From Escherichia coli (lineage in GTDB: Bacteria > Pseudomonadota > Gammaproteobacteria > Enterobacterales > Enterobacteriaceae), in NCBI RefSeq assembly GCF_003334355.1, contig NZ_QOWP01000028.1: a DNA stretch of 53,280 bases; one strand, 5' to 3'. Under the pieces are notes generated by a model. The model was given only the letters and a program-made list of their open reading frames with translations, did not search any database and was not told the origin of the DNA. Below are positions 51,232-51,245 of the stretch, piece after piece (the stretch's first letter is position 1; every line of letters starts with the position of its first letter). A program made the translations under genes and the position numbers.

Positions 51232-51245
51232 TTGATTCCTATCAA
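51232..51245 (+). promoter_or_regulatory. FNR box upstream of ccp
   Basis: Perfect TTGAT-tcct-ATCAA at 51232-51245, about 110 bp upstream of the ccp ATG; ccp (yhjA) is known to be FNR- and OxyR-dependent. Confidence 0.65.

Follow-up and report, generated by a model that had tools for sequence, protein, structure and literature searches.

The promoters activated by FNR in the class II mode, including narG, dmsA, nirB, yfiD and ydfZ, carry a 14-bp inverted repeat, TTGAT-N4-ATCAA, centred at -40.5 or -41.5 and so overlapping the -35 position, together with a recognisable -10 element but no -35 element, and their co-activators are NarL and NarP. The promoters activated by OxyR, including katG, ahpC, oxyS and dps, carry four ATAG-type elements at intervals of 10-11 bp upstream of the core promoter, and their activation depends on H2O2. 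At such OxyR-activated promoters the OxyR site usually abuts the -35 element. One E. coli gene, yhjA (ccp), is regulated by both FNR and OxyR, as was reportedly described by Partridge, Poole and Green in 2007 (Microbiology 153:1499).

In the curation derived from RegulonDB (PMC4207228), yhjA is activated by FNR in anaerobiosis (Table 4) and also by OxyR, and the double control of the yhjA promoter by FNR and OxyR has been taken to mean a response to low oxygen plus peroxide (PMC10301912). The anaerobic, peroxide-linked expression of ccp that a first-pass annotation of the present sequence had proposed is thus borne out by the curated activation by both regulators. The ccp gene is listed in the OxyR regulon, and under hypoxia OxyR induces Ccp (PMC8115020), the enzyme that enables the respiratory chain to pass electrons to H2O2 as a terminal acceptor (PMC8115020, PMC12051229; reviews by the Imlay laboratory). 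Anaerobically, yhjA was 2.0-fold higher in the wild type (PMC3688515 Table S12). For FNR in general, 19 of the 23 activated promoters with a known transcription start have their sites at -41.5 +/- 4 (PMC3688515).

The window, a stretch of 53,280 bases from an E. coli strain other than K-12, includes the same treF/ccp (yhjA) locus and the same 14-mer as the K-12 yhjA promoter. The features of this locus are as follows.

49299-50948, minus strand: treF, 549 aa, divergent from ccp, as annotated in E. coli genomes
50949-51352, no strand assigned: treF-ccp intergenic region, 404 bp, AT-rich
51187-51223, no strand assigned: OxyR-type site, 16/20 against ATAGnTnnnAnCTAT-N7-ATAGnTnnnAnCTAT, predicted at -92 to -56
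51232-51245, no strand assigned: FNR box, TTGATTCCTATCAA, centre 51238.5, predicted at -40.5 relative to the ccp start
51267-51272, plus strand: -10 hexamer TATGAT, 5/6 against TATAAT, beginning 21 nt past the box
51279-51280, plus strand: predicted ccp transcription start, G at 51279, 7 nt past the -10 hexamer
51279-51352, plus strand: predicted ccp 5' UTR of about 74 nt, with a predicted 5'-terminal stem-loop (51279-51291) and, at 51330-51345, a conserved block that carries CTCAC-N4-GTGAG beside the Shine-Dalgarno sequence
51353-52750, plus strand: ccp (yhjA), 465 aa, cytochrome c peroxidase in the RefSeq E. coli annotation

The counterparts in K-12 MG1655 are b3519 (treF) and b3518 (ccp). 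The Ccp protein has a hydrophobic N-terminus and CXXCH haem motifs at three places (residues 59, 207 and 351), which support the earlier description as a tri-haem peroxidase, and its residues 177-428 match the MauG/di-haem peroxidase family. The product is a membrane-anchored tri-haem quinol/cytochrome c peroxidase. The GC content was 0.375-0.425 in the intergenic region, as compared with about 0.51-0.60 inside treF and 0.44-0.55 in ccp, in agreement with the previously proposed AT-rich region of about 400 bp common to the divergent treF. The small open reading frames within this region are unremarkable, and Rfam had no family matching 50850-51450 at E values up to 1. A segment of 604 bases around the box has matches of 95-100% identity in 5423 of the 5426 complete E. 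coli genomes. Over 211 promoter-proximal bases the MG1655 sequence is the same as that of the window except for one spacer base (51259), and the experiments performed with K-12 therefore apply to the window.

The letters at 51232-51245, TTGATTCCTATCAA, match TTGAT-N4-ATCAA at 10 of 10 positions, and this is the 14-bp inverted repeat of an FNR site. The exact sequence TTGATNNNNATCAA was detected only once on both strands of the window, again at 51232-51245, so the perfect consensus recognized at first pass stands as the sole exact match. For a perfect box, the expectation by chance was a mean of 0.04 per window, with one match in 4 of 100 dinucleotide-preserving shuffles. The box centre lies 114.5 bp and the box 3' end 107 bp upstream from the ccp ATG, close to the distance of about 110 bp given before. 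In K-12, this 14-mer is the predicted FNR site at yhjA/treF, with a PatSer score of 14.16 and ln p of -12.64, beyond the threshold of -10.75 (PMC3688515 Table S6). The ccp FNR site is real and conserved, but it is already known and curated and is not new.

A generic sigma-70 scan found no complete -35/-10 promoter on the plus strand. This result, together with the lack of a separate -35 element, is expected for a class II activator-dependent promoter, and the -10 hexamer was instead located by its register with the box. With a start at 51279 the box would span -47 to -34, the place of the -35 element, and the geometry predicted from the -10 hexamer, which puts the box centre at -40.5 or -41.5, agrees with that of a class II promoter activated by FNR. 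When the same register is followed in all of 17 lineages aligned, in which the -10 hexamer lies 21-23 nt past the box, the predicted box centre falls between -40.5 and -42.5.

Upstream of the box, separated from it by a gap of 8 bp, the letters at 51187-51223 read ATAG-gcacagg-CTAT-cttattg-ATAG-tttatat-tCAT, in which three tetrads are perfect. These are the four ATAG/CTAT elements of an OxyR site at N7 spacing. The motif is the top match in the window on both strands, and a score of 16/20 was reached in 1 of 100 composition-preserving shuffles. An alternative OxyR register at 51209-51245, overlapping the FNR box, scored only 13/20 and was rejected. The OxyR motif had been missed at first pass and probably accounts for the peroxide-linked half of the expression. 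At its predicted location of about -92 to -56 this site lies one activator-width further upstream than is usual for OxyR-activated promoters, because FNR would occupy -47 to -34. The ccp promoter thus shares with the class II FNR promoters the 14-bp repeat at the same predicted position, the -10 element and the lack of a -35 element, and with the OxyR promoters the four-element site (16/20) and, according to the literature, H2O2-dependent activation, but it differs from the former in having OxyR instead of NarL/NarP as the co-activator.

An 11-nt inverted repeat, CTTATTGATAG and CTATCAAAAAG (51202-51212 and 51239-51249; 91% complementary, 26 nt apart), connects the third element of the OxyR site with the right half-site of the FNR box. 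The TTGAT within its left arm is replaced by TCGAT or ACGAT in other genera, and the repeat is therefore probably incidental.

The conservation of this arrangement was examined in a single scan of species-representative genomes with the Ccp protein, which gave 41 loci. A box of at least 8/10 was found upstream of ccp in 35 of the 36 Enterobacterales loci having upstream sequence, and for 25 of them a perfect box was located 86-117 bp before the ccp ATG. As background, the remaining 238 kb of the 41 loci contained a single perfect box, and 23 that scored at least 9/10. By genus, boxes of 8-10/10 precede ccp in every one of the 11 Enterobacterales genera recovered, being located about 86-122 bp upstream from ccp in Escherichia, Citrobacter, Pluralibacter, Providencia, Trabulsiella, Entomohabitans, Hafnia, Enterobacillus, Buttiauxella and an Enterobacteriaceae MAG, and about 146 bp upstream from the real GTG start of ccp in Yersinia. 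The loci of distant homologues in Saezia, Lachnospiraceae and Chloracidobacterium are without the box.

The N4 spacer varies from genus to genus (TCCT, ACTT, AATT, GAAT, AAAA, ACCC, AGTG and others). When the 17 lineages were lined up on the box, the mean information content was 1.9 and 1.6 bits for the two half-sites, as compared with 0.44 in the N4 spacer and about 0.3 in the flanking DNA. Such selective conservation of the half-sites in orthologous promoters is that of an FNR site, and shows that the ccp box is more than a chance match. The three perfect OxyR tetrads gave a mean of about 1.6 bits, in contrast to 0.4-0.8 for the N7 spacers, and a hexamer of the form NAnnnT is present 21-23 nt past the box in 17 of 17 lineages, with at least 4/6 in 14 of them (control anchors, 0.11-0.23). 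The divergent neighbour is treF only in Escherichia and Citrobacter among the 11 genera, indicating that the box belongs to ccp and travels with it. The arrangement of FNR box, OxyR site and -10 element is ancestral and has been kept across Enterobacterales ccp whatever the neighbour. This conservation across genera extends what was described for K-12 and is not a new kind of regulation.

Two loci showed deviations. Entomohabitans teleogrylli has two ccp paralogues, and the FNR/OxyR module is kept at one of them (L023) but not at the other (L024). In Providencia heimbachae the perfect box is located 226.5 bp from the start, as compared with about 107 bp, which suggests that the 5' UTR has gained an insertion or that the start is set wrongly.

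Within E. coli, a search with a 34-base query centred on the box found the exact box in at least 5393 of the 5426 complete genomes. The search seeds on an exact word of 28 bases, and each such word within 34 bases spans the whole box, so that all of these 5393 genomes carry the box exactly. Unlike this near-invariant box, the spacer between the box and the -10 element is polymorphic among E. coli strains.

Based on these elements, the ccp promoter is, with little room for doubt, an AND gate for the absence of O2 and the presence of H2O2, in which FNR at -40.5 acts in the class II mode and OxyR at about -92 to -56 as the co-activator. The present analysis provides the sequence elements with their spacing and conservation and shows that they are linked to ccp rather than treF; the dependence on FNR and OxyR as well as the binding of FNR in vivo come from the literature. 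In the absence of oxygen, [4Fe-4S]-FNR would dimerise and bind TTGATTCCTATCAA centred at about -40.5, where, in place of a -35 element, it would recruit RNA polymerase to the TATGAT -10 element. FNR alone would give little ccp expression. Oxidised OxyR on the four-element site would then co-activate, probably via the alpha C-terminal domains, and the outcome would be transcription under anoxia only when H2O2 is present. We infer the contacts with sigma-70 and alpha from the established modes of activation by class II FNR/CRP and by OxyR, and the exact start likewise from the -10 element. The AND gate is in agreement with the role of the enzyme as a respiratory peroxide reductase, and the site would account for a peroxide reductase confined to anoxic niches with H2O2, for example where oxic and anoxic zones meet at the gut epithelium. 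The AND logic has already been published and the present points leave the specialist picture unchanged; what remains of interest is the conflict between the ChIP data sets rather than the box itself.

The binding of FNR in vivo was the check proposed at first pass, and the published data are divided. Cells with FNR-3xFLAG in microaerobic LB gave positive ChIP-qPCR signals at yhjA (p = 0.009 and 0.04) as well as at treF (p = 0.010 and 0.048) (PMC2690998 file 8). The two amplicons share one 404-bp region, and most simply both report the ccp site. In the ChIP-seq study of Myers et al. 2013, the site appears as its reverse complement, TTGATAGGAATCAA, assigned to yhjA/treF at coordinate 3667319, and is classed as 'silent', that is, predicted, without an FNR ChIP-seq peak and under H-NS plus IHF enrichment (PMC3688515 Table S6). 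The H-NS region in anaerobiosis is 3661953-3667384, 5.4 kb in length (PMC3688515 Table S3), and the IHF ChIP-chip region, 3667035-3667586, spans the site (PMC3688515 Table S4). The tables of FNR peaks in that study, for both the wild type (S5) and the strain carrying delta-hns/delta-stpA (S7), have no entry at 36670xx-36675xx, and the FNR-dependent operons tabulated there (S8) do not include yhjA, a term located only in Tables S6 and S12 (PMC3688515). The available supplements of another FNR ChIP study name neither yhjA nor treF (PMC3974632). A search of main-text literature gave no FNR ChIP-seq on yhjA, the information being in supplements. Thus the check was answered positively by ChIP-qPCR but not by ChIP-seq, and in this respect ccp, despite its perfect consensus, differs from the class II FNR promoters above, which gave ChIP-seq peaks under fermentative anaerobiosis.

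The cultures for ChIP-seq were anaerobic, in glucose-minimal medium without H2O2 (PMC3688515), and OxyR would therefore not have been active. On the simplest interpretation, the promoter is almost inactive in the absence of OxyR, and the FNR site is poorly occupied or poorly cross-linked. The conflict between the published binding data also suggests that nucleoid proteins mask the site. A further step, offered only as a speculation with a small chance of being correct, is that H-NS and IHF mask the site in ordinary anaerobiosis and that oxidised OxyR next door acts, besides being a co-activator, as an anti-silencer gating the access of FNR. If true, this would account for a 10/10 site without a ChIP-seq peak. 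In a lesser variant, the same site would give anaerobic control of treF after H-NS is lifted.

Since the FNR site is a single palindrome, it could be used in both directions, also giving anaerobic control of treF in Escherichia and Citrobacter. Co-expression data agree with such bidirectional use, and an anaerobic effect of 2-fold on treF was observed, but only in the absence of H-NS and StpA. On the other hand, the box centre is 290.5 bp away from the treF ATG, the sole sigma-70-like promoter on the minus strand (-10 element ending at 50978) is about 260 bp away from the box, and the treF side of the box is filled by the OxyR site. The ChIP-qPCR signal at treF is most simply that of the ccp site within the common intergenic region, and 9 of the 11 genera retain the box with no treF beside it. 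We therefore consider bidirectional use unlikely; treF as the main target of the box was rejected on the basis of distance and lost synteny. The lack of a wild-type ChIP-seq peak, together with the location under the 5.4-kb H-NS region and the IHF region (PMC3688515), would also be in line with a chance or vestigial match, occluded by nucleoid proteins and having no role in vivo, and one perfect box per 53 kb did arise in 4% of shuffles. This explanation is however largely refuted by conservation: the half-sites are kept across 11 genera at a fixed distance to the -10 element while spacers and flanks diverge, and within E. coli the box is near-invariant (5393 of 5426 genomes). In addition, ChIP-qPCR was positive, the regulation by FNR is curated, and ChIP-seq was run without H2O2, with the co-activator OxyR inactive. 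That the box is a match by chance is thus highly improbable.

Equally remote is the reading of similar DNA by another ligand, such as IHF, of which the core ATCAA is the same as the FNR half-site, CRP, or YeiL, the third paralogue of the CRP/FNR group. A perfect IHF core, WATCAANNNNTTR (AATCAATCAATTA), is indeed located on the minus strand at 51225-51237, overlapping the left half-site, and IHF ChIP-chip enrichment was detected over this region in K-12 (PMC3688515 Table S4). The number of IHF cores in the window, 4 versus 2.0 expected, is however not significant, and the core is kept in Escherichia and Citrobacter only, in contrast to both FNR half-sites, which are kept in all genera. Moreover, the half-sites of the box are the FNR-specific TTGAT and not the TGTGA of CRP, and IHF binding would add to the control by FNR but not replace FNR. 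The class II activation by FNR with OxyR as the co-activator is thus the preferred reading of the ccp promoter.

Downstream of this core promoter, an inverted repeat, GTCTC-gca-GAGAC (51279-51291), starts exactly at the predicted +1 of ccp. In Citrobacter the stem at the predicted +1 is present with altered bases (GTCTG/AGAC, GTCC/GGAC, GTCCT/AGGAC and GTCTT/AAGAC), and unrelated hairpins are found at this position in Hafnia, Trabulsiella, an Enterobacteriaceae MAG and others. The repeat may represent an mRNA-stabilising 5'-terminal stem-loop or a DNA operator. The segment of about 45 nt that precedes the ccp ATG (51308-51352) is near-invariant between Escherichia and Citrobacter, exceeding the promoter spacer in conservation. 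Within this segment CTCAC (51330-51334) and GTGAG (51339-51343), N4 apart, could form a stem, of which the 3' arm overlaps the Shine-Dalgarno GAGG. Single-sequence folds gave small anti-SD/SD hairpins in most genera. A conserved hairpin sequestering the ccp Shine-Dalgarno sequence was considered from these folds; RNAalifold, run on the alignment across genera, found no consensus pair, and this hairpin and the other 5' UTR structures are left as unconfirmed.

Some E. coli strains carry insertions in this promoter region. In E. coli fS54a (NZ_CM176577.1; locus L042, 1290-1310 and 2480-2510), an IS5-family element, ISKpn26-like and with a frameshifted transposase, is inserted inside the FNR box. 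The insertion corresponds to 51242/51243 of the window, with duplication of CTAT (51239-51242), and the junctions read TTGATTCCTAT followed by GGAAGG on one side and CCTTCC followed by CTATCAA on the other. The left half-site and the OxyR site are thereby parted from the ccp core promoter, and this allele is a natural promoter disruption. In NZ_CM194533.1 (2607092-2608472) about 777 bp, with the annotation of an IS1 family transposase, interrupt the match to the intergenic region, and in a third E. coli strain (NZ_CP134353.1) the treF-ccp intergenic match is found in two places. The AT-rich treF-ccp intergenic region seems to be a recurrent target of IS elements.
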